A stretch of 32,000 nt of DNA, taken from NCBI GenBank assembly GCA_047651235.1, contig CP178758.1, positions 840,001 through 872,000 on the forward strand, written 5' to 3'. The first letter of the stretch is position 1. Each line of letters starts with the position of its first letter. The position numbers and the translations under genes were made by a program. This document shows, in pieces, positions 14,291-29,025 of this stretch. The notes beneath the pieces are model-generated. The model made no database searches. It had not been told where the DNA came from and was given only the letters and a program-made list of their open reading frames with translations. This stretch comes from Candidatus Electrothrix yaqonensis. GTDB taxonomy: Bacteria > Desulfobacterota > Desulfobulbia > Desulfobulbales > Desulfobulbaceae.

Positions 14291-14355
14291 CGCTATTTCG
14301 GCTAAAGCCGATTAAAACCGCTGACTAAAGTCAGTGTGTAACGACTGAAAGTCGT
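14279..14355. repeat. Cluster of four small hairpins with related CT(G/A)AAAG cores (IS200/IS605-type subterminal structures)
   Basis: GCAACTGAAAGTCGC (14279-14293, imperfect), CGGCTAAAGCCG (14299-14310), CTGACTAAAGTCAG (14321-14334) and ACGACTGAAAGTCGT (14341-14355). They lie directly 3' of the tnpA remnant. Confidence 0.5.
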
Positions 14356-14678
14356 TATTCTATTTTAAAATCGTCATTATTATGATTTGGGTCATTTCTG
14401 TGATTTTCAATATAATTCCGTATCATTTCATCAGTAACGTGTCCGGAACTCAAAGCAACGCAGCCAATACCCCAAAAATGTTTTCCCCAGTATCTTCTGG
14501 ACAGTTGAGGAAATTCTTCCTGAATCTTTTTTGAAGAGCGACCCTTGAAAAATCGCACCATTTCACTCACGGATATTTTGGGAGGATATGACACATAGAT
14601 ATGGACATGATCCTGACTGATATAGCTGGAGCAACATAATTTGAATATGCCTACAAGAGGCATAAGTTTTGCCTTCAC
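14355..14678 (-). pseudogene. tnpA: IS200/IS605-family TnpA (Y1 transposase), N-terminally truncated
   Basis: DHVHIYVSYPPKISVSEMVRFFKGRSSKKIQEEFPQLSRRYWGKHFWGIGCVALSSGHVTDEMIRNYIENH matches the C-terminal two thirds of IS200 TnpA, including the HUH motif (HVH) and catalytic Tyr region. The first ~40 conserved residues are missing. Confidence 0.8.
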
Positions 14679-14772
14679 GCCTTTCAGATAGCTGATCCTG
14701 TATTCAGTTTATACTGCTCCAGCTATATCGATACTGCAACTGGCAATTACAAATTAAGTTCGGAGAGAGAAG

Positions 14773-16026
14773 ATGGAAATATTAGGAGGACCATTATTTG
14801 GAGTAGCGGGTGCTGGTGAGTCACACGGCCCTGCCTTTACCACAATTGTTTTTGGTTGCCCACCAGGGGTACGAATATCACGGCAGAGAGTGCAGAAATA
14901 CCTAGATAGGCGACGACCCGGCAGTAATAAATATGGTACAACTCGTCAAGAGGGAGATAACGTCGCTTTTCTATCAGGAATCTATGCTGAAGGAGAGCAT
15001 GATTTTCTGCTGTCCGGTCCAGATATCTGCATTCAGGTTGAGGGAGAGAGGTATCAAACTGAGACATATGAAGGTGGCTATACGACTGGAGAGCCGATTT
15101 CTGCTGTTGTTTTGTCGGCCTCCAAAATATCGAGACACTACCAGCAGTTTGTCGGGTCTAGCGGGGAAGTCCGTCCTGGACATACTGGTTTGGTCAAGCA
15201 TTATAAGTCAAAGGGATTTGTCGATGTCCGTGGCGGAGGGCGTTCCAGCTACCGCTCGACGATTTCTGATGTGATCGGTGGATCAATTGCACGTATTTTT
15301 TTAAAAAAACATTTTGACACAGTGATCTTGTCTTCAATTTGTCAGGTAGGGCCGTTGAAGGCTTCACAGAGTTTGGCTACTCATTTTGAACAGCTTATTC
15401 TGAATTCCCAGAGTCCAAAAGTATCATCGGAGGAAATCACACGGGTTGAGGAAAAACTGGCTGGCGCAGAAATCTATTCACTGGATACAACGTTCGCCCT
15501 AGAAGCTGCCAAGTTGATCGAAAAAACGCACGAACAAGGTGATTCACTGGGTGCGACCTTGGAAGTGGTGGCTTTAAATGTACCGCCTTTGGTTGGAGAG
15601 CCGCTTTATCAAAGTTTAAAATTACGTTTGATGGGGATATTAGGCGGGGTAAACGCTGCTCAATTTTGTGAGGTAGGCGGCGGTAGCAAGGTAGTAGGTC
15701 GTTTGGGGAGTGAAAATAACGATCCTATTCGTCGTAGCGGTTATCAGGCTAATAGTCATGGTGGGGTAATTGGAGGTATCACTACCGGTATGCCCTTAGT
15801 TTTCCGGGTGGGATTTAAACCCACTTCTACGATTAATAAACCTCAGCTATCCGTATGTAAGGATTTAAAAGAAATTGATTTTATAGCTGAAAAAGGACGG
15901 CATGATCCCTGTGTCGGTGTAAGAGCCGGGGTTACGCTTGAGTCACGAATGGCGATTGAGCTAATGAACGCCGTTTTAATGCACCAATCACATCAGTTGA
16001 ACACAGACCATTTTGAGTTGTTTTAA
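14773..16026 (+). CDS. aroC: Chorismate synthase family protein, divergent paralogue 1
   Basis: 417 aa, collinear with AroC: GESHGP, DRRRPGS, RPGHTG, RGGGRSSYRST, GDSLGA, VGEPLY, NSHGGVIGGIT, KPTSTI, KGRHDPCVGVRA. It carries a ~27-aa insertion between LSGIY and TTGEP relative to E. coli AroC. SD GGAGAGAGAAG precedes the ATG. Confidence 0.8.
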   Translation: MEILGGPLFGVAGAGESHGPAFTTIVFGCPPGVRISRQRVQKYLDRRRPGSNKYGTTRQEGDNVAFLSGIYAEGEHDFLLSGPDICIQVEGERYQTETYEGGYTTGEPISAVVLSASKISRHYQQFVGSSGEVRPGHTGLVKHYKSKGFVDVRGGGRSSYRSTISDVIGGSIARIFLKKHFDTVILSSICQVGPLKASQSLATHFEQLILNSQSPKVSSEEITRVEEKLAGAEIYSLDTTFALEAAKLIEKTHEQGDSLGATLEVVALNVPPLVGEPLYQSLKLRLMGILGGVNAAQFCEVGGGSKVVGRLGSENNDPIRRSGYQANSHGGVIGGITTGMPLVFRVGFKPTSTINKPQLSVCKDLKEIDFIAEKGRHDPCVGVRAGVTLESRMAIELMNAVLMHQSHQLNTDHFELF

Positions 16027-16027
16027 A

Positions 16028-17060
16028 AGACCTCCTGCAAAACTTGGTGATTTGACAGAAACGGCGGATGCTGATATTTTTTCGGTCACTTTTTCGATTA
16101 TCAACCCCGGAGGTCTGAAAATCATGCTCACATTCGAAAAACTCTCCCGCCGCCCTGAAACATTCCGCCGTCTGACCGGTGTCGATATTGATCTTTTCAA
16201 CGGAATGACGGAAAAGATCCGCCCTTTATGGGAAGAGCGGAGAGATAATTTTGAAAAGGGCGGGAGAAAGCACAACTTGGAAGGAGCTGAAAACCACCTT
16301 CTCGCCATGCTCCTGCGAAGTCTTCGCTTATCTATTACCGTTGTTACGTGACATATGAGTTCCTCAGTTTTTTCTTCGATTCCGATGAGACGACGGTGAT
16401 GCGCGCAGTGAAACGGATGGAAAAAATCGCGGTACGGGTGATTCATATTGAAAAAAAGCGTGAAATCACACGGGAAGATGCGGAATACCTGATAATCGAT
16501 GCGACGGAACAGCCGGTTCAGCGCCTGAAGAAAGGACAGAAGAAGTATTACAGCGGAAAGAAGGGAAAACACACGCTCGGAACGCAGTTTACCGCCGGTC
16601 CCGACGGACGGATTTTTTCGGTTTCGGCGTCGTATCCCGGAAGTGTTCATGATTTCAGGATATATAAGGAACAGAAGGGGCGGGAGCGTTTTCACGGTAT
16701 TCCGAAGAAGGCCGACAGCGGATATCAGGGAATCGCGGCATATGACCGGCGCGCCGAAATTCCCTTTAAAAAGCCCCGGAACGGTGAACTGACCGCCGAA
16801 CAGAAGGCATATAATCTTGATTTATCGAAAAAACGTATCAAAGTTGAGCATGTCATAAGAGAGGTGAAGGTATTTAAAATCATGTCGGAAACATACCGGA
16901 ACAGGCTTAAAGGCCATAATATAAAGAAAAATATCATATCCGGCATAGTGAATATGAAGGTTGCGGCACGGAAAATGAAGAAAGCTGCCTGAAGCGGAAA
17001 ATTTTGAAAAAGGGAAAAACCTCACCGCCTGAGAAGAACAGGCAGTTCTGCAGGAGGTCT
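16028..17060 (+). mobile_element. IS5-superfamily (DDE_Tnp_4 / Harbinger-like) insertion sequence with 16-bp terminal inverted repeats
   Basis: IRL is AGACCTCCTGCAAAAC (16028-16043). The reverse complement of IRR (17045-17060) is AGACCTCCTGCAGAAC, 15/16 identical. AAA flanks both ends (possible 3-bp TSD, low complexity). The element sits 1 bp after the stop of aroC-like 1. Confidence 0.8.
16124..16992 (+). pseudogene. IS5-like DDE transposase, split by one frameshift near 16310-16350
   Basis: The N-terminal HTH part is MLTFEKLSRRPETFRRLTGVDIDLFNGM..ENHLLAMLL. It continues in another frame as LIYYRCYVTYEFLSFFFDSDETTV... with the DDE_Tnp_4 pattern (IIDATEQPV, KKGKHTLGTQ, PGSVHDF, ADSGYQG, RIKVEH). 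There is no slippery run at the shift site. Confidence 0.75.
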
Positions 17061-17125
17061 AAAGAATGTTCTCTCTCCTCAAGTTTTTATAGTTCTGATT
17101 ATTTTTGATTCTATAGGGAGGCTGT

Positions 17126-17509
17126 ATGAGCAAAAAGTACCAAAATTTGATTTACAGAAATGTACTTGCTCCTCTTTCTTCAGTCCCATTTCATTCAGAT
17201 TGCTCATGTATTGAGAGAGCTGTTGCTGAAGAATTTCCTGTACATTTAGCAATTCATAGAATAACAAAGGCTCAAGGCTTACCACAAAAGTATGTTGAAC
17301 TCCATGAACATAATGCCCCCGAAATAAATATCTTGATAGGAGATGAGGGTGAAATGGAGTATCAGTTTCAACTTGAGGACGAAATTTATCATGTTCGTTC
17401 TCCTGCTAGTATTTGGATACCATCCGAACTCAAACATGCTGCAAATCTCATTAAAGGATCAGGTACTTATGTGTGTGTAATATTGAGCGGCACCTATGTT
17501 ACACAATGA
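17126..17509 (+). CDS. Small cupin-fold protein (function unknown)
   Basis: 127 aa. The segment YVELHEHNAPEINILIGDEGEMEYQFQLEDEIYHVRSPASIWIPSELKHA resembles the two-motif cupin metal site (H.H...E ... H). Its 3' end overlaps the aroC-like 2 ORF. Confidence 0.4.
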   Translation: MSKKYQNLIYRNVLAPLSSVPFHSDCSCIERAVAEEFPVHLAIHRITKAQGLPQKYVELHEHNAPEINILIGDEGEMEYQFQLEDEIYHVRSPASIWIPSELKHAANLIKGSGTYVCVILSGTYVTQ

Positions 17510-17552
17510 CAGGCTGTTTGTATTAAATTTTATAGAATGTGGAGGTGACGTT

Positions 17553-18806
17553 GTGGAGATATTGGGTGGGCCACTATTTGGGGTAGCCGGAGCTGGTGAA
17601 TCACATGGACCAGCTGTTACTACAATCGTATTTGGTTGTCCTTCTGGGCTGAAAATATCACGCCAAGGGGTGCAGCAATACCTGGACAGAAGGCGACCCG
17701 GCAGCAGCAAACATGGTACAGCCCGCCAAGAGGGCGATAAAGTAGCTTTTCTTTCAGGTCTTTATGGAGAAGGAGACTATGAACGTTTGTTGTCCGGCCC
17801 AGATATTCGAATCCAGGTTGAGGGAGAAGAATGCCAGACAGAAACATATGAAGAGGGATATACCACTGGCGAGCCAATTGCGGCAGTCGTTTTATCGACT
17901 TCTAAGATATCAAGACATTATGATCAGTTTGCTGGCCCTGGTGGTGAAGTTCGTCCGGGTCATACGGATTTAGTGAAGTATCATAAATCCAAAGGATTCG
18001 TTGATATTCGAGGTGGTGGACGTTCCAGTTATCGTTCCACCATTTCTGATGTGATTGGTGGCTCAATTGCTCGAATATTTTTAAAAGAGCATTTTAATAC
18101 TGTTATTCTGTCTTCAATTTGTCAGGTTGGGCCTCTGAAAGCCTCTAAGAGTTTGGCAGGTCATTTTGAGCAGCTTGTTATAGAATCCAAGGATCAGAAA
18201 ATATCATCAGGGGAAATCAAGCGTATTGAAGGAAAGTTAGCCGACGCGGAGATTCATTCTTTGGATACAGAATTTGCCCTTGAAGCTGCTCAGTTAATTA
18301 AGAAAACTCACGAAGAAGGTGACTCCTTAGGTGCGGCAGTTGAAATAGTGGCACTTAATGTACCATCTTTGGTCGGAGAGCCACTTTATCAGAGCTTGAA
18401 ATTACGTTTAATGGGCATATTGGGGGGATTAAATGCCGCTCAATTTTGTGAAGTCGGTGGTGGTACCGAGGTGGTAGGCCGACTAGGTAGCGAAAACAAC
18501 GATCCCATTCGCCAGACTGGTTATCAGGCTAATAGTCATGGTGGGATAATTGGAGGCATCACTACCGGTATGCCGTTGGTTTGTCGAGTTGGCTTTAAAC
18601 CTACCTCTACCATTAATAAGCCCCAGCTTTCTGTGCGTAAAAATAAGGAGAATGTTGATTTTATAGCTGGAAAAGGACGGCATGATCCTTGTGTAGGGGT
18701 GAGAGCAGGGATTACGCTTGAGTCTCGAATGGCTATTGAGTTGATGAACGCAGTTTTACTGCATCAGTCGCATCAGGTGGATACTGAGCATTTTAAGTTG
18801 TTTTGA
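17553..18806 (+). CDS. aroC: Chorismate synthase family protein, divergent paralogue 2
   Basis: A GTG at 17553 follows SD GGAGGTGA and gives a 417-aa protein collinear with paralogue 1. My hand count finds 75 differences in 417 gap-free positions (~82% identity). The tracked start at 17496 adds 19 non-homologous residues. Confidence 0.8.
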   Translation: MEILGGPLFGVAGAGESHGPAVTTIVFGCPSGLKISRQGVQQYLDRRRPGSSKHGTARQEGDKVAFLSGLYGEGDYERLLSGPDIRIQVEGEECQTETYEEGYTTGEPIAAVVLSTSKISRHYDQFAGPGGEVRPGHTDLVKYHKSKGFVDIRGGGRSSYRSTISDVIGGSIARIFLKEHFNTVILSSICQVGPLKASKSLAGHFEQLVIESKDQKISSGEIKRIEGKLADAEIHSLDTEFALEAAQLIKKTHEEGDSLGAAVEIVALNVPSLVGEPLYQSLKLRLMGILGGLNAAQFCEVGGGTEVVGRLGSENNDPIRQTGYQANSHGGIIGGITTGMPLVCRVGFKPTSTINKPQLSVRKNKENVDFIAGKGRHDPCVGVRAGITLESRMAIELMNAVLLHQSHQVDTEHFKLF

Positions 18807-18852
18807 GGTTAGGAAAGCGGTAGCAAAAAAGCAAACTTCAAGGAGAAAAACA

Positions 18853-19227
18853 ATGAAGACGTCAATCCAATCCATTGAACTCAAAGAAGGTGCGCAACTG
18901 CTGATTGAAGTAGAGGAAGTCGAGCTTCCTAAAACCAGAAAAGGAAGCGATTCAATTCCAAACTTGCCGCCTGGGACTGAGGAAATCGGATTCAATGATA
19001 AGGTTCAGGATATCAAAGAGCTGCTGCGGCAAAATTTGAGTGGTATTTTTGAAACCGTTGCCGAGTCAGTTAAGGAAAAACAGCCTGATGAATGGGGCGT
19101 GGAAGTAAATATCGGGTTCAAAGGGAAAACCAACCCGGTACCGGTCATACTCAGTGGCGAGGCTAATGCTGCAATCAAAGTTCACGCCAAATGGACTAAG
19201 GATAAATCGGAAGCGCAGAATGGTTGA
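18853..19227 (+). CDS. Trypsin-co-occurring domain 1 (Trypco1 / CU044_2847-like) small protein
   Basis: 124 aa. The N-terminal strand IELKEGAQLLIEVEE, acidic linker and C-terminal PDEWGVEVNIGFKGKTN..GEANAAIKVHAKW fit my recollection of the Trypco1 family. SD AAGGAG is present, and the stop overlaps the start of the trypsin-TIR gene. Confidence 0.6.
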   Translation: MKTSIQSIELKEGAQLLIEVEEVELPKTRKGSDSIPNLPPGTEEIGFNDKVQDIKELLRQNLSGIFETVAESVKEKQPDEWGVEVNIGFKGKTNPVPVILSGEANAAIKVHAKWTKDKSEAQNG

Positions 19228-20581
19228 CTGGAAACGGGCAGTCGCACGGGTTTATAGCGGAATTCCAGGTGAAAGAAGACGATTCTGCGGCACCGCCTTT
19301 ATGATTTCGGACCGCCATCTGCTAACCTGTTGGCATGTGGTTCGCGATGTTAAGGAGGAAACGCTGTATATTCGTGATGCCACTTCCTGTGGAGGAGGAG
19401 ATTTACCGGTGCGCCTTATAACTTCGAAGCAAGATGTCGATATTGCCCTGCTTGAGCTTAAAGAAGTTATTGAGGAGGGGGCCGAACGAGTTTCCTTGTC
19501 TCTTGAGAAAGCTTGTCCCGTTGTTAAAGACAAGACTGTCGAGTTGGCTGGATATGCCAGCGAGGATCGACCTCGTGATTATTTTAAAGAGATAATAGGT
19601 CAATATGAAGGTAAATATAGTCTCTACGCTATTGCGGTAGCGGTCGGTAAAGGAATGAGCGGCGCACCGGTACTGTATCAGGGCAAGCTGGTCGGTATCT
19701 CACGTCTACAGGGAGACAAGAGAACCTACCTGATCCCTCTCAGTGATTTTCGGGGCCTGCTGAAGGATCATGTTTTTTCAGAGAAGGAACAGATTCAAGC
19801 TATTACGTCTGAAAAAAAAGCAATATCGTCAAATGAGACTGCTATGTCATTACGCCGCAGTGTGTATATTTCCTACTCTTGGAAAGCAGCAGGTAAAAAT
19901 GATACAGTGGAAAAATTGCTGGCCGCTTTTGATAAGCAGGGGATTGAAGTCAAAAGAGATATTAATGAGATTGGTTACGGTGCCCCTATCAAGGCGTACA
20001 TGGATGAGCTGGCTGCTGGTGGGGCGATTATTCTGGTATTAAGCGAGCCGTATTTCAAGTCACCAAACTGCATGTACGAGTTGCGGGAGATATATCGCAA
20101 TAACCAAAAGGATTTTCGTAAGCTTATTTTTCCCGTGGTTATGCAAGATACTCACTTTCATCGGGCTATTGATCGCATCCCGTATATTTCTTTTTGGCAG
20201 GAGGAAACAAGAAAACTGGAACAAGCATTAGGCACAGTTGATATAAAGAATATTGGTCCTTCTCATCAAGAACTTCTTGATTATGCTGAATTTTCTATGA
20301 TTATTGATAAGCTTCAATATTTGATCGCTGATATGAATCACCTGAGTGAAGAGGAACATCTCAAAATAGATTTCTCCTCTTTAATTGAACGTGTCGTTGA
20401 TGTTTATCCTTTTGCTTCTGGCAGATTGGTTTCACAAGAGAACATTTTGTCGAATATCTCACCCAAGGAAGAGTTAAGATCGGAGGAAATATCTGAAGTT
20501 GAGAATATGTTAAAATATACAAAATTACCTCATGTGAGAGAGTCTCTTGAACGACGCTTGAATAAATTGAAATCACAATAA
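19220..20581 (+). CDS. Trypsin-like serine protease fused to a TIR domain (plus ~100-aa unassigned helical tail)
   Basis: The ATG at 19220 overlaps the upstream stop (ATGGTTGA). Protease triad contexts are LLTCWH39VV, D74IALLEL and GMS147GAPV. The TIR-like part runs from ~aa 214: VYISYSW..GIEVKRD..IILVLSEPYFKSPNCMYE287L, with the conserved Glu context. The tracked ORF start at 19154 lies inside the upstream gene. Confidence 0.75.
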   Translation: MVDWKRAVARVYSGIPGERRRFCGTAFMISDRHLLTCWHVVRDVKEETLYIRDATSCGGGDLPVRLITSKQDVDIALLELKEVIEEGAERVSLSLEKACPVVKDKTVELAGYASEDRPRDYFKEIIGQYEGKYSLYAIAVAVGKGMSGAPVLYQGKLVGISRLQGDKRTYLIPLSDFRGLLKDHVFSEKEQIQAITSEKKAISSNETAMSLRRSVYISYSWKAAGKNDTVEKLLAAFDKQGIEVKRDINEIGYGAPIKAYMDELAAGGAIILVLSEPYFKSPNCMYELREIYRNNQKDFRKLIFPVVMQDTHFHRAIDRIPYISFWQEETRKLEQALGTVDIKNIGPSHQELLDYAEFSMIIDKLQYLIADMNHLSEEEHLKIDFSSLIERVVDVYPFASGRLVSQENILSNISPKEELRSEEISEVENMLKYTKLPHVRESLERRLNKLKSQ

Positions 20582-20609
20582 AATTAAACAGCAAAGAGAA
20601 TGCTAATCA

Positions 20610-23354
20610 ATGGAAGGTAAACAGGTGCTGATGATGAGTAATAAGAGATTTGTCGGACGTGAAGAGGAAAAAGAATTGTTTAAGGATTTTTTAAAAAAGG
20701 ATAAGCGGCTACTTATTTTCCTAGGGGAAAGAGGAATCGGAAAAACAGCTTTACTTGAAGAGTTGCATTGTAGTGCCACAGAAAGCAAGCATATTTGTGC
20801 CTATTTTAAATGTACCGGTTCAGCGGATGAAGAGACGGGTATAATGAAGACGTTTAGAGAAAAAATAGGCAAAGATGTAACGGGGGAAATGATATTCCTT
20901 TCTAAAAATTTTTTTACATCGTTTGATGATACTCTTAGAAAGATTGAGAGCAGGAAATCTCAAAAAGATTCTGGAAATCTATATAAAAAACTACGGAAGT
21001 CATTTAGTTATGCCGTAGACGGTCTGTCTAAAAAGATAGGTAATGATGGTAAGCGATTAATATTTTTTTTTGACGAAACAGAAAGGTTAAGCCCCAGTAT
21101 AAAAAAATGGCTACGGCTACGTGTTGAAGAATCTTTAAGAAGAGATAATAATGTTTTTTTTGTTTTTGCGACAATAAATGATATTGATCAAAGAATAATA
21201 TGGAAAAGACGACAAGATATTTGTGAGAAAAAAATTTGCGAATTTACTGAAGATGAAAGAAAAAAATATTTAGCAGAGAACTTGCAGGAAGAAAAAGACA
21301 GTGCTTTGATGAATTCTCTCTCGTCTGTAACTGGTAATCCTCTTGCACTTTCATTGTTTTGTACTATTCAGAGATCAGAAGAAATAAGAGATGTTATTAA
21401 TAGGATTGGAAACGACAAAAGTCACTTAGATATTTCATTGATAACTATTATAAACGAAATATTACAAAAAGTTTTAAATGAATGTGATTGCAAAAAAATA
21501 GTACATCGTTCTTCTGTGTTGCGATCCTTCAACGAAGATATTCTTAATAATGTTTTAGAAAAAGAATGTATTCAAGAAAAATGCGGTAATCTGAAAAAAT
21601 GTTTTGAAGAAGGATATCTTAATAAGATTAAGAAAACTTTACTTGTTGAAGAAGTATATATATTAGTATGTAAAAATATTTATAATATATATAAATATCA
21701 TGACCAAATTAGAAGATTATTATATGAGGAATTGCAAGGTAATATTCATGTCAATTGTGAAAATTTGCATCAATCGTTCTTGGACTATTATGAAAAATGG
21801 TACGATAGAGTGAGTACCGATGCAGAGAAATCAGACCTCGTACTGCTGGAAATAATCTATCATCAATTAAAAATTGATGAGAAGAAAGGGTTAGAACGTG
21901 CTCGTAATGAGTTTAACGACGCTCGTCAATCATTTAATCTCAGTCGTTGTACAAGAATAATTTCCGAGCTGGAAAAGTTTTTTTGGAAGGATTCCCCCAA
22001 TGCTACGAAGCAAGTAATTGACTTTCTTCAAGGTAAATTAGCAGTAACACAAGGCCGTTATGATTATGCCATAAAAAAATTTGATCAGGTATTGCGTAGA
22101 CGTGATTTGTTAATAGGTAAAGATGAGTTAGCTTCAGAGGCACTTGTTGCGCTTGGTGAGTCTTATTTCCTTCCGGGAAAGCATCTTGACTCATTGGAAA
22201 AATCAAAAAAAGTACTTGAACGTTTAAATGAGCAAGAAGAAAAATACCCTATAATCAGTGCTTCTGCTCATTGGATTATAGGACGAATACATCGCAGTCA
22301 GGGAAATATGGAGAAGGCCGATGAGCATTTGAAACGCTGCATTGATCTATCAATTAATACAGGAAATTATTATTTTGCCGGATATGGGTTATGCACTTTG
22401 GGAGAGATATATCAGATGCAGGGTGACTATACACAGGCAATAATAAATCTTGACGATAGCCTGCACATGATGTCGCTTAATGGTGATGAGAATAGAAGGA
22501 AAAGTAAGGAGATTATTGGCAGAACTCTGCATATCCTTGGGAGAGTACATCAGTTTCAAGGGAAATGGGAGAAAGCAAAAGAAGAGCTATCTGTAAGTTT
22601 AGAAATTCGTCGGGAAGTTACCAAAGATAAACCACAGCACAGTCTCGGTTATGCTTATTGGGGGTTCGGTTGGTTCTACTTATTTCAGCGCAATGCCTCT
22701 GCTGCTATTGATGATTTAGAGAAAAGTGAAAATATATTCGAAACCCTTAATGAGAAAGACGGTATTGCCAGAACATATCGTTTACAGGCTGAAGTCTATC
22801 TCATGCAGGGGGATAATGAACAGGCCGCTGAACTTTTACGCAACGCTATAGCTATTCAAAAGGAAAAAAAGGGAAACTATGAACTGGGCCTGTTACATCT
22901 CGGCTTGACCAGATACCATATTGCTATGGAGAGTTGGCAGGAGGCTATAAAGACTAATGAAAAGGCGAGAATGCTTTGTGAGGGGTCTGGAGACCGTTGG
23001 GCGCAAGTCAAATCTGACATTTTACAATGCCAGATTGATATGCACTTATCTCAGTATGATGATCTGGAACCTCGAATAAGTAAAGCAAATATTGAGGTAG
23101 AAAATTTTCCAGACTTAATGTTTGAGCTTGAATTGGTGCGCGGTGAGTATGCTGTTAAAACAGACCGCTTGGACGATGGCGTTGAAGCATACAGCAAGGC
23201 GTACAACAAAGCAAAAGAGTTTTATCACCCTGACGAGCATAACGCAGACTATGTTGCAAGAGTTATCTACGGACAAGTGCAGAGCTTACCCCAGGAAAAA
23301 AAGGAGTACCTTACAAACGCGCTTCCAGAAATAATGTCCGTAGCAGCAGAGTAA
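20610..23354 (+). CDS. STAND-class P-loop NTPase (NB-ARC/AAA_16-like) with C-terminal TPR repeat array
   Basis: 914 aa with FVGREEEKE, Walker A GERGIGKT (20724-20747), Walker B LIFFFDETE and a GNPLAL (GxPLA-like) motif. From ~aa 470-860 there are repeated TPR-like units (e.g. GNMEKADEHLKRCIDL, GDYTQAIINLDDSL, GKWEKAKEELSVSLEI, GDNEQAAELLRNAIAI). No N-terminal effector domain is present, and composition is very AT/Lys/Asn-rich. Confidence 0.8.
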   Translation: MEGKQVLMMSNKRFVGREEEKELFKDFLKKDKRLLIFLGERGIGKTALLEELHCSATESKHICAYFKCTGSADEETGIMKTFREKIGKDVTGEMIFLSKNFFTSFDDTLRKIESRKSQKDSGNLYKKLRKSFSYAVDGLSKKIGNDGKRLIFFFDETERLSPSIKKWLRLRVEESLRRDNNVFFVFATINDIDQRIIWKRRQDICEKKICEFTEDERKKYLAENLQEEKDSALMNSLSSVTGNPLALSLFCTIQRSEEIRDVINRIGNDKSHLDISLITIINEILQKVLNECDCKKIVHRSSVLRSFNEDILNNVLEKECIQEKCGNLKKCFEEGYLNKIKKTLLVEEVYILVCKNIYNIYKYHDQIRRLLYEELQGNIHVNCENLHQSFLDYYEKWYDRVSTDAEKSDLVLLEIIYHQLKIDEKKGLERARNEFNDARQSFNLSRCTRIISELEKFFWKDSPNATKQVIDFLQGKLAVTQGRYDYAIKKFDQVLRRRDLLIGKDELASEALVALGESYFLPGKHLDSLEKSKKVLERLNEQEEKYPIISASAHWIIGRIHRSQGNMEKADEHLKRCIDLSINTGNYYFAGYGLCTLGEIYQMQGDYTQAIINLDDSLHMMSLNGDENRRKSKEIIGRTLHILGRVHQFQGKWEKAKEELSVSLEIRREVTKDKPQHSLGYAYWGFGWFYLFQRNASAAIDDLEKSENIFETLNEKDGIARTYRLQAEVYLMQGDNEQAAELLRNAIAIQKEKKGNYELGLLHLGLTRYHIAMESWQEAIKTNEKARMLCEGSGDRWAQVKSDILQCQIDMHLSQYDDLEPRISKANIEVENFPDLMFELELVRGEYAVKTDRLDDGVEAYSKAYNKAKEFYHPDEHNADYVARVIYGQVQSLPQEKKEYLTNALPEIMSVAAE

Positions 23355-23355
23355 T

Positions 23356-24210
23356 CTACTTTATGCTCTCCATAGCTTCCTCCATAACTTCAATCGGAGG
23401 TTCAACATCGGTATACATCTTGAATTTCAAAACCCCTTGCCACAGCAGCATCCTGTAACCGTACACGAGGGTACAGCCTCGTTTGCCAGCATTCTGAAGA
23501 AGTTTTGTTTCTCTGGGCTTACTCACAATGTCCATAACCGTCATGTCTGGTCCTAAGAGTTGTTCAGGGACTAATGACTCTCCTTCGTGGGCAGTATTTG
23601 CCATGCCCACAGGGGTTGTATTGATAAGAATTGTATCTTTTGTGACAAGGTCAGGAAGAGAATCGTAACCACCAAAAGGTACGCTGTCGTCTACTGCCGT
23701 CGCTAATTCTTTTGCTTTACTAACTGTACGATTTAGAATAGTGATTCGGCAGCCTTCATCTTGTAGAGCAAAGGCGATGGCTCTTGCCGCTCCTCCGCAT
23801 CCGAGTATGATGATATTCCTGTCTTTCATCGATGTCTTTTCCTGCAAGGCTCTGAGAGCACCCTCACCGTCCGTATTCCCCCCTATCAACTTGCCGTCCT
23901 TGTTCAAAACAACGCTTACTGCACCAACTCTCTTTGCGTTAGGATCAAGTTCATCTATATAATCCATTATGTCTATTTTGTAGGGGATTGTTACGCCTAC
24001 AGCGGCAACCCCCAGATTCCGTATTCCTGCCACGGCCTTTTCAAGGTCATGCACGGCAAAAGGGACATAAAGAAAATTGAGCTCCATTGCTTGTATTGCC
24101 GCATTATACATAGCATACATCTTGCTGGTTCGGTATGTTGAGCCGAAAAAGCCAATAAGCTTTGTTTCTCCATTAAGTTGCACTTGCTTCTCCTTCAAGT
24201 CGTTCCACAA
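23356..24210 (-). CDS. aroE: Shikimate dehydrogenase family protein (divergent substrate-site motifs)
   Basis: Motifs VTIPYK (catalytic Lys), GGNTDGEG (Asp), the Rossmann ILGCGGAARAIAF and NRTVSKAKEL. The tracked start is a TTG at 24210. A GTG at 24183 preceded by AAGGAG is a better start. It overlaps the aroK 3' end. Confidence 0.78.
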   Translation of the reverse strand: MWNDLKEKQVQLNGETKLIGFFGSTYRTSKMYAMYNAAIQAMELNFLYVPFAVHDLEKAVAGIRNLGVAAVGVTIPYKIDIMDYIDELDPNAKRVGAVSVVLNKDGKLIGGNTDGEGALRALQEKTSMKDRNIIILGCGGAARAIAFALQDEGCRITILNRTVSKAKELATAVDDSVPFGGYDSLPDLVTKDTILINTTPVGMANTAHEGESLVPEQLLGPDMTVMDIVSKPRETKLLQNAGKRGCTLVYGYRMLLWQGVLKFKMYTDVEPPIEVMEEAMESIK

Positions 24211-24733
24211 TTTTTTCTACCAGTATGTCTGGAGATTCTGAACTGCACTTCAAAGTTATGTCTGCTACCTGTTCATACATCGGCCTTCTTGTAGCAAGCA
24301 ATTCTTTAAGTGATTTTTCCGGGTTGTCTGGGTAAGGGAAAAAAGGCGGAATTCCTCCTGAGATTATTCTAGGTAAAAGAGAATCTGAACTGATATCCAG
24401 AAAGACTATTGTTCCCATGCCGTTCAGGAGTTCACGGTTGCTCTCCTCAAGCGGAAGTCCTCCGCCGGTAGCTAAAACATAATCTTTACCTTTTAGCGTA
24501 CTGTGAAGTTTTGTTAACGTCCTCGTCTCTAGCTCTCTGAAATAGTCACGACCGTATTTTTTGAAAATTTCTCTGAACGGAAGTTGTTCTTTTTTAGCAG
24601 CACAATGCTCCTGTTCAAGTTCAGAGTCGATATCAATAAATCGGACGTTCAGCATCTTTGCCAAGGCATTACCTGTGGTGGTCTTGCCACTTGATTTCAT
24701 GCCGATGAGGACTATTGCTGTGCCATGTTCCAT
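24173..24733 (-). CDS. aroK: Shikimate kinase
   Basis: 186 aa with the P-loop IVLIGMKSSGKTTTG, the IDIDSELE pattern (D.D) and LATGGG. Confidence 0.82.
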   Translation of the reverse strand: MEHGTAIVLIGMKSSGKTTTGNALAKMLNVRFIDIDSELEQEHCAAKKEQLPFREIFKKYGRDYFRELETRTLTKLHSTLKGKDYVLATGGGLPLEESNRELLNGMGTIVFLDISSDSLLPRIISGGIPPFFPYPDNPEKSLKELLATRRPMYEQVADITLKCSSESPDILVEKIVERLEGEASAT

Positions 24734-24739
24734 AACTCA

Positions 24740-26050
24740 TTAATCCTCTTCGACCAATTCGAAATTTGCCCCGGCATTTTTCATTTCAGGGATATACGTA
24801 CCAAAAGACTTTTCAACCATTTGAGCATCAGAGATTTTTGTTTCACCTTCTGATGCCAAACCGGCCACAGAAAAAGCCATTACCATACGATGATCATAGT
24901 AGCCGTTAATTTCAGCTCCTTTCAGTTTCCAGGTTCCGTCTTGGTGGATGATCATGCCGTCTTCTTTTTCCGTGATTTTTGCCCCCATCTTTTGTAATTC
25001 CTTACAGACTGCAGCAATCCTGTCGCACTCTTTCCACCGTGCAGTCAGGGCATTTTTTATGATGGTTTCGCCTTTGGCAAAACATGCGGCAACAGCCATT
25101 GTCGGCACCTGATCAGGAAGCAAATTCATGTCTACTTCAATGCCTTTCATTTCTCCTGATTTTGCTGTGATACAGTTATCCTCTATAGTAATATCCGCGC
25201 CCATTTTCTGTAATATATAGATCATCTGCCTGTCACCGTACGGGTCATCCAAGTCCATCCCCTGAATAGTAACGTGTGAATTCGGTGTAATGATAGCGGA
25301 TAACAAAGGATAGCCCGGGGTTGACCATTCCAGAGGAATCGTCGCCTCAAACGGTCGGGGCGGTTTGTTGCCGGGAAATGCATAATGTTCATATGTCCCC
25401 CCGACATTTTCATAGTGCAATCCGGCCTTATCAAACCAGTATAAGAGGAGATCAATATAAGCTGTTTCACCGGGGTTCTCGACATAAACATCAACAGGTT
25501 TTTCAGATAATGCCGATGCAATCAAGACGCTAAATACCGGTTGGCAGCCTATACCATTCATTCGAGTCATGCCGCCATTCACTTTTCCTTTAAAAACAAA
25601 GGGAGCCATGCCATCTTCTTTGGTAGAGATGACAGTTACACCTAGGTCTTCAAAAGGTTTGATGAAATCTTTTGTAATTTTTCTTAATTTCCGCAAGGAT
25701 TCATCACCGGTCAGGATTGTCCACCCAGGACATGCGCCAGCCACACCGGCAATAAAAACCAGCATTGTTCCAGAGTTGTTGACATTAATGATATCTTCAG
25801 GGGTGTGTAATTTTCCAGCAACTCCTTTGACCCTGAAGCAGTTATCTGCCGTTTCATTGATTTCGGCACCATACATTCGCATGGCTTTTACCGCCTCGTG
25901 CCAGTCACTGCTGATTTTCGGTCGATGAATAGTGGAAACTCCATCCGCCAGAGATGCTAAAATGAGCGCCCGAAATGAATGCGTTTTTGAAGGAGGCATA
26001 GAAATTATGCCGTTAATTGCATCACTTTTACGTACTTTTAAATACAACAC
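24740..26050 (-). CDS. aroA: 3-phosphoshikimate 1-carboxyvinyltransferase (EPSP synthase) family
   Basis: 436 aa with PPSKTHSFRALILASLA, NSGT, LTGDESLRK, ARWKECDRI, YYDHRMVMAFSVAGL and VEKSFGTY, collinear with E. coli AroA. Confidence 0.82.
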   Translation of the reverse strand: MLYLKVRKSDAINGIISMPPSKTHSFRALILASLADGVSTIHRPKISSDWHEAVKAMRMYGAEINETADNCFRVKGVAGKLHTPEDIINVNNSGTMLVFIAGVAGACPGWTILTGDESLRKLRKITKDFIKPFEDLGVTVISTKEDGMAPFVFKGKVNGGMTRMNGIGCQPVFSVLIASALSEKPVDVYVENPGETAYIDLLLYWFDKAGLHYENVGGTYEHYAFPGNKPPRPFEATIPLEWSTPGYPLLSAIITPNSHVTIQGMDLDDPYGDRQMIYILQKMGADITIEDNCITAKSGEMKGIEVDMNLLPDQVPTMAVAACFAKGETIIKNALTARWKECDRIAAVCKELQKMGAKITEKEDGMIIHQDGTWKLKGAEINGYYDHRMVMAFSVAGLASEGETKISDAQMVEKSFGTYIPEMKNAGANFELVEED

Positions 26051-26064
26051 AACACAACTCCTTA

Positions 26065-26526
26065 TTATTGATTATATTTATTTTTCAAAATTTCAACCAG
26101 GCTTCTGAAGCCTACGTAATAGCTTTCTTCTTTCAGTCCGGTCACACGGTCGATGCGCACATCATCAAGCACATTGATAGTCTTATTGATTCCTGTTTTA
26201 TCAATATTGGACATATGCACTTCCATAACAGGCTTGCCGAGGTCCACCAGGGCCTGGCGAAAGCTGTATGCGTATCGTATTAAAGCTCCCGGATTGACGA
26301 GAACTCCGTGTGCACTTCGCGACAGGTCGCTTTGCAGATAATCAATAATCCCCCCTTCATGATTAGATTGGAAAAAGTCAACCTGCACATCCAGCTGTTC
26401 TGCCAGCCGGGACAGTTCCCGGTTGATTTCTTCCATAGTGATGGACCCGTATTTTGACTCATCCCTTTTTCCTAACAGATTGAGGTTAGGACCATGTAGC
26501 ACAATGATTTTAATTTGATGCTCCAT
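26065..26526 (-). CDS. aroQ: Type II 3-dehydroquinate dehydratase-like protein (central catalytic motifs substituted)
   Basis: 153 aa. HGPNLNLLGKRDESKYG, FFQSNHEGGIIDY, VNPGA and MEVHMSN match AroQ. The usual (S/T)HTS and AREEFR..S motifs read IRYA and KTGINKTIN. Confidence 0.65.
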   Translation of the reverse strand: MEHQIKIIVLHGPNLNLLGKRDESKYGSITMEEINRELSRLAEQLDVQVDFFQSNHEGGIIDYLQSDLSRSAHGVLVNPGALIRYAYSFRQALVDLGKPVMEVHMSNIDKTGINKTINVLDDVRIDRVTGLKEESYYVGFRSLVEILKNKYNQ

Positions 26527-26571
26527 TTTTATTGAATTCCTTCCTTGTTGCCTTGTTGTAACGGGGTGAAC

Positions 26572-26856
26572 TTATTTGAGTGTCAGAAAAAATCGGTATA
26601 TTATCACAGATCGGGCAGGAGATATAGTCAAATGTGGCGTTTGAAAAAATAGCCGTCTATGTTGTCCGTAATTATATTTAAAATCCGTATAGTTATTTGA
26701 TTGACGCTGCAGCTCTTCCTCCACTGCGTCCGCGATTAACTTCCCGGCACCGGTATGCAGTAATCCGGCCAACGGATCGAGCAAACTTTCTTCTGGATTT
26801 TTCAGATCAATAATTTTATCTTGAGTCGTGGCTTTCTTCAACGTGACGGTTGCCAA
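26572..26856 (-). pseudogene. IS256 (Mutator)-family transposase N-terminal fragment
   Basis: ATVTLKKATTQDKIIDLKNPEESLLDPLAGLLHTGAGKLIADAVEEELQ matches the conserved N-terminal region of IS256-type transposases (DPL..LLR.GAR.L...A.E.E...). There is no DDE domain or IS ends. It is cut on both sides. Confidence 0.5.
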
Positions 26857-26858
26857 CG

Positions 26859-27020
26859 TGCCGGATCCTTCGCTACATCGCGACCTATGAGGATCATCGG
26901 ATCGCCATGTGTTTTGCCGTGGCCGGGCTGGGGGTTCCGGGGGTGAAGATCCACGGCGAGGGCTGCGTGGCCAAGTCTTTTCCTGATTTTTGGGAGTGGT
27001 TTGAGGGGATGGTGAAGTAG
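26859..27020 (+). pseudogene. aroA: 3' remnant (~50 codons) of a second, high-GC EPSP synthase gene (native aroA)
   Basis: ..RILRYIATYEDHRIAMCFAVAGLGVPGVKIHGEGCVAKSFPDFWEWFEGMVK* is the canonical EPSPS C-terminus (Y.DHR.AM, C..K.FP.F). Nothing homologous lies upstream of ~26850, where it abuts the IS256 fragment. One 60-nt line here counts ~63% GC. Confidence 0.8.
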
Positions 27021-27042
27021 AGGGCCGGGGGGATTTGAGGGC

Positions 27043-27167
27043 TTAACTAACCCAAGTTGCTACCTATGAACCCAACATGCTGTTTTTTCGTTCGGGTAAT
27101 TTTTCAGGCGTACTGTAACTGTCTGATCTGCTGTCACCACGTTGTAGGTGGCAACTTGAGTTAACTA
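27043..27167. repeat. Imperfect inverted repeat pair flanking ~80 bp between the aroA remnant and the R-M module
   Basis: The left arm TTAACTAACCCAAGTTGCTACCT (27043-27065) faces a right arm whose reverse complement (27146-27167) is TAGTTAACTCAAGTTGCCACCT. The core CAAGTTGC(T/C)ACCT is 12/13 identical, and both arms carry TTAACT. Confidence 0.35.
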
Positions 27168-27197
27168 ATATTTTAAATTGGCTAAAAAATACGCCTT

Positions 27198-27788
27198 ATG
27201 GCCTTAAATCGGATACCTGCTGAAATACGAAAGCGGTACGAAATCCATGAATGGAAACATGCCAGTGCCATTCTCCACAGCGATTTCCCTGAAGAATGGG
27301 CGGACATAATGGACGTGTTGACGGAGTTTCGCCTGTACAAAAGCTGGATCACGAAGCGCGGGGGCAGTAAATCTAAAATATCCGGTTTCATAGATGAGTT
27401 TCTGTATCAGAGAGGCTGGCTGGAAAAAGACTTTTCAACCCAAGTCGTTGTTGATGATCAGATCATGGAAACTCCGACTCATAAGATTGACTGCTACAAA
27501 AACCGCATTGCTTTGGAGATAGAGTGGAACAATAAGGATCCGTTCTTTGATCGGGATCTCAATAATTTCCGTTTGCTTTTTGATCTTCGGGCTATCAGTG
27601 TCGGCATAATCATCACACGATGTGATGATCTGCAGGACATCTTTAATGATCTCGGCAGGGGGCAATCTTTCGGAGCATCCACCACACATATGAGCAAATT
27701 ATTGCCGAGGATTGAAGGAGGAGGCGGGGCCGGTTGCCCGTTGCTTGTTTTCGGTATTTCCAAAAGTCTCTACATAGAGGATGAATAA
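27198..27788 (+). CDS. Type II restriction endonuclease, BglII/BamHI-fold-like
   Basis: 196 aa. KNRIALEIEWNNKDPFFDRDLNNFRLLFDLRAISVGIIITR resembles the catalytic E-x-E/-F-x-N block and following strand of BglII/BstYI/BamHI-type enzymes. A DNA methyltransferase gene starts 2 bp downstream. Confidence 0.55.
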   Translation: MALNRIPAEIRKRYEIHEWKHASAILHSDFPEEWADIMDVLTEFRLYKSWITKRGGSKSKISGFIDEFLYQRGWLEKDFSTQVVVDDQIMETPTHKIDCYKNRIALEIEWNNKDPFFDRDLNNFRLLFDLRAISVGIIITRCDDLQDIFNDLGRGQSFGASTTHMSKLLPRIEGGGGAGCPLLVFGISKSLYIEDE

Positions 27789-27790
27789 GT

Positions 27791-28444
27791 ATGTCAGAAA
27801 TATCAGCTAACGATGACCTGCTGGCCTTTGCCGGAAAAAATAAGTTCTCTACAATACTTGCTGATCCACCTTGGCAGTTCCAGAACCGTACCGGAAAAAT
27901 GGCACCTGAACATAAAAGGCTGTCCCGTTACCCGACCATGACAATCAGTGAAATCTGTGAGCTTCCCGTAAAGGCAATCGCTAACGAGACTGCTCACTTG
28001 TATTTATGGGTACCGAATGCTCTGTTGGCTGACGGTCTGAAAGTTATGGAGCATTGGGGTTTTACCTATAAAACAAATCTAATCTGGTACAAAATTAGAA
28101 AAGACGGAGGCCCGGACCGTCGGGGAGTAGGCTTTTATTTTCGCAATGTCACAGAAATTATTCTGTTCGGCGTCAGAGGAAAAAACGCCCGTACCCTCCA
28201 ACCCGGCCGCAGCCAGGAAAATATCATATCTGCCAGAAAAAGAGAGCATAGCCGAAAACCGGATGAGCAATATGATATAATTGAAACCTGCAGTCGGGGA
28301 CCGTTTTTGGAAATGTTCGCGCGAGGCCCCCGAACAGGCTGGGCTTCCTGGGGAAATCAGGCGGAACAATATTCCCCGGACTGGGCAACCTATAAAAATC
28401 ATTCTCAGTCAAAAGTCATTCCCTTACAACTGGCTCTTGGCTGA
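27791..28444 (+). CDS. MT-A70-family DNA N6-adenine methyltransferase
   Basis: 217 aa with ILADPPWQF (DPPW catalytic motif), YPTMTISEI, HLYLWVPN, WGFTY, the EHSRKPDE pattern and LEMFARG..GW..WGNQ. This is the full MT-A70 pattern. Confidence 0.85.
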   Translation: MSEISANDDLLAFAGKNKFSTILADPPWQFQNRTGKMAPEHKRLSRYPTMTISEICELPVKAIANETAHLYLWVPNALLADGLKVMEHWGFTYKTNLIWYKIRKDGGPDRRGVGFYFRNVTEIILFGVRGKNARTLQPGRSQENIISARKREHSRKPDEQYDIIETCSRGPFLEMFARGPRTGWASWGNQAEQYSPDWATYKNHSQSKVIPLQLALG

Positions 28445-28605
28445 AATCGTCCCGCAAGCCAATGCATTGAACATCCGCAGGCACGTTTTCCGGGGATGCC
28501 GGAACGGGTAAGGAAAAAGAAAAATCCGGTGCCTCTGCGCACGGAATCTGGTATATATTTTTGAATGGATTTAACCAATAAAAAACAGAGAAGGAGAAGA
28601 GCGTT

Positions 28606-28935
28606 ATGGCAAGTGAACATGTCATTGAAGTGAGTGACGGTGATTTTGAAACGACTGTGGAGCAGAGCGAACTGCCCTGTCTGGTTGACTTCTGGGCCCC
28701 GTGGTGCGGACCCTGCAAGGCTATCGGCCCGGTGATTGAGGAGCTGGCTGAAGAGTTTGCCGGCAAGGTGCAGATCGCCAAGATGAATGTGGACAACAGC
28801 CCGGCCACTCCGGGGAAATTCGGCATCAAGGCCATTCCGACCCTGATCCTGTTTAAAAACGGGGAAGCGGTTGACCGGCTCACTGGTGCTGCAGGCAAGG
28901 CCCAGCTCAAGGACCTGATCAGTAAAGTTATCTGA
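28606..28935 (+). CDS. trxA: Thioredoxin
   Basis: 109 aa with LVDFWAPWCGPCK (CGPC active site) and GIKAIPTLILFKNGE. SD AAGGAGAAG is present. Confidence 0.95.
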   Translation: MASEHVIEVSDGDFETTVEQSELPCLVDFWAPWCGPCKAIGPVIEELAEEFAGKVQIAKMNVDNSPATPGKFGIKAIPTLILFKNGEAVDRLTGAAGKAQLKDLISKVI

Positions 28936-28950
28936 GAGGGCGGCTAAGAG

Positions 28951-29025
28951 CAGGGAACTGAACAAAGCGTCTTTTCTGTTCACTGTTCAGCTCCCTGCCC
29001 GCTGATATTTTTCTTTTTATTTTCA
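28951..29025 (+). terminator. Hairpin plus T-rich tract downstream of trxA
   Basis: CAGGGAACTGAACA (28951-28964) pairs with TGTTCAGCTCCCTG (28984-28997), a 14-bp stem with 1 mismatch. ..GATATTTTTCTTTTTATTTT follows. Confidence 0.55.

Follow-up and report, generated by a model that had tools for sequence, protein, structure and literature searches.

A Trypco1, protease-TIR and STAND-TPR gene cassette in a cable bacterium: a candidate protease-gated conflict system and its alleles at one chromosomal site

Trypco1 and Trypco2 have been described as mutually exclusive neighbours of trypsin-like proteases within nucleoside triphosphate (NTP)-dependent conflict systems, which are enriched in multicellular prokaryotes (Kaur, Burroughs, Iyer and Aravind, eLife 2020; PMC7159879). 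Both families were renamed "Pepco" by Evans et al. (bioRxiv 10.1101/2025.11.14.688446), who found that SsPepco with SsAvs4 is toxic in response to a trigger only if both the small protein and the catalytic serine are present. SsPepco forms SDS-resistant 9-10-mer barrels; it is cut after Ile97, in an unstructured C-terminal tail, losing 2 kDa, which activates a beta-barrel pore, and the truncated form is lethal to E. coli. Evans et al. also linked protease-effector modules to general stress responses. In the systems of Wein et al. (PMC10312443) a split trypsin protease, a STAND protein and a gasdermin are coupled via CARD-like domains, and Doré et al. reported Trypsin_2, TIR_2 and Trypco1 together at VMAP loci diversified by diversity-generating retroelements. 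We examined a 32,000-nucleotide stretch of contig CP178758.1 of Candidatus (Ca.) Electrothrix yaqonensis (the whole stretch is called the window), which encodes at 18853-23354 three co-oriented forward-strand genes: one for a Trypco1 protein, one for a protein with Trypsin_2 and TIR_2 domains, and one for an AAA_16/TPR STAND NTPase.

We give about an even chance to the reading that this cassette encodes a STAND-controlled, protease-gated cell-death system of the conflict or abortive-infection type, with two outputs, derived from a two-gene system of Trypco1 plus a trypsin::STAND-TPR fusion. The original prediction, made from the sequence alone, had proposed an NTP-dependent conflict system of the Trypco-trypsin-STAND type, which fits the class of Kaur et al. 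2020 (PMC7159879). The three open reading frames (ORFs; 124, 453 and 914 amino acids), their strand, the stop/start overlap and the 28-nucleotide gap were as it had described; the domains Trypco1, Trypsin_2, TIR_2, AAA_16 and TPR all scored above curated Pfam cut-offs; and a position check recovered H39, D74, S147, E287, K45, the Walker B motif and GNPLAL. Its statement that this exact combination is experimentally uncharacterised is supported as well. The class had already been predicted (Kaur 2020) and its core logic partly demonstrated for the sister family (Evans 2025); new here are the split TIR-bearing variant, an allelic series revealing insertion of a cartridge within a linker, and evidence for recombinational swapping of modules at a fixed housekeeping site in cable bacteria. 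The features of the cassette, followed by its two flanks, are:

18853..19227, forward strand: Trypco1 small protein, 124 amino acids (PF19493, NF041216)
19220-20581, forward strand: protease-TIR protein, 453 amino acids; stop codon TAA at 20579-20581
19220..19774, forward strand: trypsin-like (S1C/HtrA-like) protease domain, residues 1-185 of the 453-residue protein; triad H39, D74, S147
19781..19855, forward strand: disordered linker, residues 188-212 of the 453-residue protein; contains AITSEKK
19859..20404, forward strand: TIR domain (residues 214-335) plus helical extension (residues 336-395); putative catalytic E287
20462..20581, forward strand: C-terminal two-helix hairpin (residues 415-453) and stop codon
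20610..23354, forward strand: STAND NTPase with TPR array, 914 amino acids
17553..18806, forward strand: chorismate synthase (aroC) copy 2, left flank; 82% amino acid identity to copy 1, a Chorismate_synt match
23356..24210, reverse strand: shikimate dehydrogenase (aroE), convergent right flank, followed by aroK, aroA and aroQ

The Trypco1 ATG is preceded by AAGGAG. The stop codon of Trypco1 overlaps the start of the protease-TIR gene by 8 nucleotides (ATGGTTGA, 19220-19227), an overlap also present in the related loci L001, L005 and L006 and in the paralogous L003. From the TAA of the protease-TIR gene to the ATG of the STAND gene (20610) there are 28 nucleotides, and the STAND gene ends one base short of the convergent aroE stop.

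In the proposed mechanism, a trigger (a phage-derived or damage signal) would bind the TPR array, upon which the NTPase would exchange or hydrolyse nucleotide and oligomerise. The protease-TIR protein, held non-covalently on the STAND protein (the C-terminal hairpin being the candidate contact), would be concentrated on the oligomer; proximity would switch on the HtrA-like protease, which would cleave Trypco1, and the cleaved Trypco1, by analogy with Trypco2/Pepco, would pass from a latent form to a membrane-active toxin. The clustered TIR domains would form composite active sites and degrade NAD+. The outcome would be cell death or arrest, with one cell of the multicellular filament sacrificed.

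The three proteins and their described relatives

The 124-residue protein matched two Trypco1 profiles above their cut-offs (Pfam PF19493, E 2.2e-11, 44.6 bits vs a curated cut-off of 24.6; NCBIfam NF041216, the CU044_2847 family, E 3e-9, 37.5 bits vs 23), and its gene adjoins that of a trypsin-like peptidase. The predicted layout is an N-terminal beta-hairpin, a linker (residues 22-46), a helix (residues 47-74) and two strands (80-92 and 104-115). In the family alignment (A1) the linker varies in length and carries a conserved LPPGxEE motif, G41 is invariant, and so are the motifs IGFKG and K109-V110-x-A112-K113-W114; within the I108-K109 pair, position 108 is occupied by 16 Ile, 1 Leu and 1 Met, and the Lys is invariant. 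The helix is amphipathic (hydrophobic moment 0.45), and polar and apolar side chains take turns along both strands (80-92, moment 0.79; 104-115, moment 0.73), a predicted combination compatible with a polar-lumen barrel. From analogy plus gene linkage, Trypco1 is proposed as the substrate of the protease and a latent toxin; the candidate cleavage sites are the conserved LPPGxEE linker and I108|K109, the latter suggested by I97|R98 in SsPepco.

Like the Pepco-trypsin-Avs4 system, the cassette places a small non-enzymatic protein directly upstream of a trypsin-like protease under STAND ATPase control: a serine protease with an H39/D74/S147 triad and an HtrA/DegS-like fold is encoded directly downstream of Trypco1, and the relatives L005 and L006 have the same two-gene layout with the protease N-terminal to the STAND. 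The two systems differ in the small protein, since the SsPepco sequence (supplement of Evans et al.) is a Trypco2 (PF19631), whereas that of the window is a Trypco1 in which no sequence similarity to SsPepco was detected. They differ too in the sensor and in its connection to the protease: the window STAND is of the TPR type and matched none of the Avs family models (Avs1-5) in PADLOC and NCBIfam, and its protease lies on a separate chain together with a TIR.

The protease domain (Trypsin_2, E 2e-13, residues 24-160) was modelled by AlphaFold2 (AF2) with a predicted local distance difference test (pLDDT) score of about 90, and Foldseek matched the model to Deg2, DegS and HtrA1 (E 1e-9 to 1e-10; template modelling score to target about 0.7). 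The triad is intact and is conserved in all full-length homologues. Matches in PADLOC were to defence-associated trypsin domains: those of HamA1 (Hachiman HamA), Lamassu LmuA, RT-Protease_XI and, weakly (E 2e-4), Avs1b. This recalls Trypsin-MBL and other protease-effector pairs (PMC12799240; bioRxiv 10.1101/2025.09.03.673762), in that a defence-associated trypsin (HamA1-, LmuA- and RT-fused by PADLOC) belongs to a co-evolving pair of protease and pro-effector that is plugged into varied sensors; in the window, however, the partner is Trypco1 and not an MBL nuclease, and a second effector, the TIR, is borne on the protease chain. The linker that follows (residues 188-212) was disordered in the AF2 model, with pLDDT below 50.

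The TIR domain (TIR_2, E 5.7e-15, residues 215-335) carries E287 within the motif S281-x2-C284-x2-E287-L, where it aligned with the Glu of the WCLxEL motif in the plant TIRs L6 and RPV1. In plant TIRs the Glu of this motif is the catalytic residue. It is conserved in 158/159 members of the TIR subfamily, and the S-x2-C-x2-E-L motif in 158-159 of 159. Given a TIR fold with the conserved catalytic glutamate, NADase activity is predicted. Residues ~336-395 form a helical extension that accompanies the domain in this TIR subfamily, and the module has 1,459 representatives at E<1e-10. It is most closely related to the N-terminal regions of TIR-NB-ARC proteins from cable bacteria, at 60-65% identity. 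The comparison with TIR-STAND and TIR-NB-ARC proteins (bacterial and plant TNL-type) thus extends to the TIR subfamily and to the motif shared with L6 and RPV1, and activation through STAND-driven clustering would be expected in both; the window TIR, unlike theirs, is not fused to an NTPase and lies C-terminal to a protease on a separate chain. The cassette also differs from Thoeris-like signalling, with no ThsA-type effector gene (SLOG, Macro, SIR2) in or beside it. Among the 150 best TIR representatives, those with hits in two stretches had other architectures (TIR-TIR tandems in P0039 and P0059, X-TIR in P0061), and the trypsin fusion with this TIR subfamily seems to be confined to cable bacteria.

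The remainder of the protein consists of a disordered stretch (398-416) and of two helices (415-433 and 437-452) that form a hairpin in the AF2 model (pLDDT about 79), with a motif, SEEI[SA]EVE..LL...R[EK]SLE[RE]RL..LK, retained in alleles that are 60-92% identical. The original prediction had set aside a tail of about 100 residues as unassigned; this holds for the hairpin at ~415-453, which is locus-specific, whereas residues ~336-395 are the TIR-subfamily extension with its more than 1,400 representatives. The hairpin matched no Pfam family, the sole hit of the 48-residue tail being Death_3 at E 0.023, well under the cut-off; a weak precomputed HetE-N hit was not reproduced in a Pfam scan of the tail and of the 156-residue protein of locus L025 (described below), in which nothing was significant. 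Comparison of the hairpin tail with the K/E-rich tail of a TIR-less split allele gave a BLASTP E of 18 and a poor DNA alignment. As the only conserved, otherwise unexplained element, residues 415-453 are a candidate for docking on the STAND protein. Two stand-alone cable-bacterial proteins, P0007 and P0009, carry the same TIR and extension subfamily with a different conserved coiled-coil tail (…DLQQQ[WR][DE]LLSDKLN.LQKQ…), an indication that cable bacteria commonly have TIR cartridges whose docking tails are of alternative kinds.

The STAND protein matched AAA_16 (E 4.9e-9), AAA_22, weakly NPHP3_N, TPR_12 (E 1.3e-28) and TPR_MalT (E 1.5e-14). Its NTPase (residues ~13-260) has a Walker A motif GERGIGKT at 39-46 (K45), a Walker B motif LIFFFDETE at 150-158 (D155/E156) and GNPLAL at 242; a helical middle region (261-430) leads to TPR repeats from ~431 to the end. 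The Walker A and B motifs, the GxP-type motif (GNPLAL) after the NTPase core and the C-terminal repeats are those of the STAND superfamily. Matches in the Protein Data Bank were to generic TPRs only. The protein is 100% identical to one of Ca. Electrothrix sp. YB6, a cable bacterium (the genome of the window), and 64-69% identical to P0028, P0029 and P0030. A Pfam scan showed nothing ahead of the P-loop, neither an N-terminal effector nor an adaptor domain; Avs/AVAST proteins (Avs1-5), by comparison, carry an N-terminally fused effector. The split alleles share a STAND start, MSNK, at 20634 and not at 20610; the true start may lie anywhere within 20610-20634.

Midway along the STAND gene (21200-21900; residues ~200-430, the helical stretch that separates the NTPase from the TPRs), the guanine-plus-cytosine (GC) content drops to 23-32%, vs about 43-46% in its surroundings. 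This trough overlaps the most divergent segment of the STAND among the alleles (residues 256-430, 54-73% identity). The TPR/C-terminal part, at 70-90%, is better conserved; a ligand-binding repeat array would usually show the reverse pattern.

The window also invites comparison with the systems of Wein et al. (PMC10312443), in which likewise a trypsin-like protease has its own chain beside a separate repeat-bearing STAND, and the gasdermin is a proteolytically activated pore-forming substrate. The cassette has neither a gasdermin gene nor a detectable CARD/Death fold, its tail being a two-helix hairpin and not a six-helix bundle; those systems in turn lack a TIR, and the candidate substrate in the window is Trypco1.

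Alleles at the aroC-aroE site and the partners of Trypco1

Related loci were found in other cable bacteria, and every contig long enough to include the flanks gave the same aroC/aroE site; the contigs of L024 and L025 are too short for this and were linked via their STAND. Four architectures are represented. In L005 and L006, a 124-residue Trypco1 is followed by a trypsin fused through a ~40-residue linker to STAND-TPR, in proteins of 1105 and 1114 amino acids that align with 99% of the window STAND at 68-69% identity. In L007 (Ca. Electrothrix sp. AW3_4) and L026, Trypco1 is followed by a 271-residue trypsin with a K/E-rich coiled-coil tail and by a separate STAND of 916 or 919 residues; L026 was the one informative locus from an alignment-based repeat of a metagenome scan that had found nothing with a single protein. 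The third architecture (Trypco1, trypsin-TIR-tail, separate STAND) is that of the window, of L001/L002 (GCA_016744835.1) and of L024 (GCA_022765785.1). In the fourth, L025, there is no Trypco1: a 156-residue protein precedes a 269-residue TIR-extension-tail protein lacking trypsin, followed by a STAND whose N-terminus is 89% identical. The 156-residue protein (112-582 of L025) occupies the position of Trypco1 and trypsin, has an Ala/Gly/Val-rich hydrophobic N-terminal helix and an acidic beta-rich C-terminus, and matched nothing in Pfam or PADLOC; it may be another latent effector.

All junctions between alleles lie within the linker that follows the trypsin domain, and three architectures have theirs at AITSEKK. 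DNA similarity between L025 and the window begins at window position 19796, inside this linker. Since alleles of the same site and STAND show the trypsin::STAND fusion and the junctions fall in the linker, the window form looks like a fused protease-STAND gene that was broken in two when a TIR-plus-tail cartridge, along with a stop codon and a new start, entered the linker. Covalent fusion of trypsin to STAND would then be the ancestral or commoner state; the split, located in the linker, would be secondary, and the MSNK start common to the split alleles points to its having arisen once. How a separate STAND licenses the protease, which the original prediction had left open, is partly answered by this series: because protease and STAND are covalently fused in the L005 and L006 alleles, the protease is meant to be controlled by this STAND. 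Rejoining of the split genes by readthrough or frameshift was considered and rejected, the STAND gene being in the +1 frame relative to the protease gene, with an in-frame TAA at 20604-20606 ahead of the ATG.

The split alleles could be taken for decaying remnants of the fused gene, the TIR insertion having disrupted the protease-STAND protein. The fused form is indeed more widespread, occurring also in the Desulfobacteraceae (L018), and the split form has no recognisable adaptor domain. Yet alleles that are by now 60-92% identical still have every ORF intact, none of the catalytic residues is lost, and at least five contigs, from two architectures, retain the split junction together with its common MSNK start. 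The ratios of nonsynonymous to synonymous substitution (dN/dS) between the window and L001 were 0.09 for Trypco1, 0.31 for the trypsin domain, 0.16 for the TIR, 0.13 for the helical extension, 0.32 for the tail and 0.22 for the STAND N-terminus; every segment, the tail included, lies below 0.35, and all parts of the cassette are under purifying selection. We regard decay as very improbable indeed.

Synonymous divergence between the window and L001 is strongly heterogeneous (1.2 in the trypsin domain, 0.18 in the TIR). The trypsin domain of the window shares 88% identity with its counterpart in the fused allele L006 but just 55% with that of L001, whereas the NTPase domain is closest to L001 (80%). 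Because the domain phylogenies disagree with one another and the closest relatives differ by domain, modules must have been swapped between alleles by recombination. The linker is the hot spot of recombination and insertion at which alleles diverge, and the cassette behaves as a diversifying locus and not as a decaying one.

The position of the cartridge, exactly at the former covalent linker, could also mean that the TIR and tail serve mainly as a scaffold for oligomerisation and docking, re-attaching the split protease to the STAND, with cleavage of Trypco1 the sole lethal output and no NADase role. TIRs can be pure interaction modules, as animal TIRs are, and L025 shows the TIR-tail to be a constant partner of this STAND subtype. 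However, the TIR-tail of L025 has no protease to tether, and the split alleles L007 and L026 do without a TIR. The near-complete retention of the catalytic Glu and of S-x2-C-x2-E-L in the subfamily, the alignment of E287 with the Glu of plant NADases, and the occurrence of the same TIR subfamily in the effector position of TIR-NB-ARC proteins likewise speak for an enzymatic TIR, and a pure scaffold seems to us distinctly unlikely.

The architecture of L025 indicates that no protease is needed for the TIR-tail to work with the STAND, and that Trypco1 belongs with the protease. A further, tentative proposal, on which we are inclined to doubt more than to belief, is that TIR, extension and hairpin form a self-contained trans-acting cartridge that would dock on an effector-less TPR-STAND by a novel type of short helical element. 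Dropped into the linker of a fused protease-STAND, it would convert a single output (the Trypco1 toxin) to a dual one (membrane attack plus NAD+ depletion), and cable bacteria would exchange such cartridges by homologous recombination at one fixed site. If this were true, the four natural alleles would be a ready series for dissecting the licensing of effectors by STAND oligomers in cis and in trans.

To follow the association of Trypco1 with trypsin outside the cassette, the Trypco1 alignment was used for a pattern scan of species-representative genomes. This gave 16 loci, all of which were inspected, the downstream gene being scanned in 10. It was Trypsin_2 in 9/10 (below the curated Pfam cut-off in L016 and L022); L017 had no Pfam match. 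Most of these loci belong to MoxR plus FGE-VMAP ternary systems, and L018 (Desulfobacteraceae) encodes a fused trypsin::AAA_22::TPR protein. In a planctomycete metagenome-assembled genome (Rubripirellula, L013; 5176-13829), Trypco1 precedes a 674-residue Trypsin_2 plus TIR_2 protein, MoxR and FGE-VMAP. The TIR of L013 is unrelated to the window TIR at the BLAST level; as the L013 fusion is independent of the cable-bacterial one, a protease-TIR fusion downstream of Trypco1 has arisen at least twice. A group II intron reverse transcriptase lies directly upstream in L013. Closer to the window, Ca. Electrothrix laxa and Ca. Electrothrix sp. AR5 have a 71% identical Trypco1 and a 61-64% identical trypsin within a vWA-MoxR/VMAP system. 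The vWA-MoxR/VMAP ternary systems (PMC7159879) therefore share both protein families with the window and, in L013, a trypsin-TIR fusion, but the window cassette has no MoxR, vWA or VMAP/FGE, with STAND-TPR in their place; the ternary genes are present in the paralogous loci L003, L004, L013 and L014.

It follows that Trypco1 tracks trypsin and not the sensor, being present with MoxR/FGE and with fused STAND, and absent from the trypsin-less L025. This bears on the original prediction, in which Trypco1 was a small adaptor: it would bridge the protease-TIR protein to the STAND, and the protease would act on cellular or phage targets. Trypco1 is indeed small, shows no motifs of an enzyme and has its translation coupled to that of the protease; no site of cleavage could be located in it, and it has no homology to the proven substrate Trypco2. 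Against this, Trypco1 is kept where the protease is already fused to the STAND and an adaptor would be needless (L005, L006, L018), it is kept in MoxR/VMAP systems with a quite different sensor, and it is missing in L025 though TIR-tail and STAND persist there without trypsin. Trypco1 and Trypco2 are moreover mutually exclusive trypsin neighbours (PMC7159879), and Trypco2, the sister family, is a cleaved substrate and pore toxin. The adaptor role did not survive these comparisons well, and we now think it highly unlikely.

Weighing of the mechanism and the chromosomal setting

Several observations weigh against the protease-gated death system proposed here. Concerning Trypco1, a profile-profile alignment (hhalign) with SsPepco gave a probability of 0.4%, with no similarity detected, so that a pore mechanism for Trypco1 is an analogy only. 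The I108-K109 pair lies within the conserved Pfam domain, unlike Ile97 of SsPepco; the tail beyond W114 has just 2-24 residues across the family, and no cleavage site could be mapped; and the AF2 monomer was uninformative (pLDDT 49). Concerning the coupling of the split parts, Pfam scans found no recognisable adaptor (CARD, Death, EAD) on the protease-TIR protein or the STAND. Because the STAND has no N-terminal domain and neither chain has an adaptor, the coupling is a candidate only. No PADLOC STAND or system model matched the window proteins, and neither PADLOC nor NCBIfam assigned the STAND or its fused relatives to an Avs family or to a system. The cassette, finally, is vertically conserved inside a housekeeping aro cluster and is not in a mobile defence island.

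The left flank, aroC, was also seen in L001, L006 and L007, and the window aroE is 98-99% identical in amino acids to those of L007 and L006. Between aroC copy 2 and Trypco1 there are 46 nucleotides. A scan for promoters and terminators around the cassette gave signals not above shuffled background, and operon boundaries could not be called; since promoter- and terminator-like sites are not enriched, co-transcription of the cassette with aroC is possible. With no flanking signal above background and a position 46 nucleotides downstream of aroC, the cassette is not a free-standing island.

This setting would suit a role that is not antiviral: a switch for programmed death, kin conflict or stress in the filament, or a link to aromatic amino acid metabolism, with the same biochemistry and an endogenous trigger. 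Besides the site fixed between aroC and aroE and the probable co-transcription with aroC, the enrichment of such systems in multicellular prokaryotes (Kaur et al.) and the links to stress responses (Evans et al.) agree with such a role. Extensive allelic diversification and module shuffling at one site are, however, what arms-race loci typically show; the trypsin domain has its closest matches among defence-associated trypsins, the cassette is 4 kb from a restriction-modification pair, and nothing ties TPR-STAND sensors to shikimate metabolites. We consider an endogenous role unlikely, while leaving it some room.

Chorismate synthase is present in the window as a tandem duplicate within a group of ORFs (14773-16026, 16013-16992, 17126-17509 and 17553-18806), the copies being 82% identical in amino acids and 76% in nucleotides over the first 300 nucleotides. 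In YB6 a DDE_Tnp_4 insertion sequence (IS) element lies between the two aroC copies. In L007 a conserved 127-residue ORF without a Pfam match is preceded by the 3' end of an aroC1-like copy. Joint arrival of aroC copy 2 with the cassette was rejected, as L007 too carries the aroC1-like 3' end upstream; for the same reason the tandem pair would be ancestral and only the IS element new in YB6. In L006 the aroC adjoining the cassette is aroC1-like (92%), which suggests recombination between aroC copies.

The restriction-modification pair (27198-28444, 4 kb downstream of the cassette) consists of a BglII-like restriction endonuclease (PF09195, E 2e-46) and an MT-A70 methyltransferase (E 6e-31), and is an insertion of ~1.2 kb relative to Ca. 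Electrothrix sp. AW3_4 (L007); a 425-residue EPSP-synthase-family gene of L007 is missing from the window. GC content is ~42-46% across 13000-28500, vs ~54-57% at 1-13000 and 28500-32000. The low-GC segment holds a transposase-associated gene (13064-13966), both aroC copies, the cassette, aroE/K/A/Q and the restriction-modification pair. Farther upstream, a nitrogenase cluster on the reverse strand (5477-10268) encodes NifH (PF00142, E 1e-121), two small ORFs (114 and 124 amino acids) and two Oxidored_nitro proteins (NifD/NifK-like); its GC content, 51-59%, is above that of the aro/cassette region.

Protease-gated effectors controlled by STAND or NLR-like proteins are a current focus in bacterial immunity and in the origins of inflammasome-like signalling. 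Trypco1 is the untested half of the "Pepco" group, and its place here beside an intact protease offers a direct test of the idea of a cleavage-activated toxin. Protease and TIR on one chain would put two mechanistically different death outputs under one sensor. The series of fused, split, split-plus-TIR and TIR-only alleles at one site shows immune modules being rewired and isolates the element that would couple them in trans. The cassette is further evidence that such systems are maintained at conserved chromosomal positions in multicellular bacteria, and not only in mobile islands.

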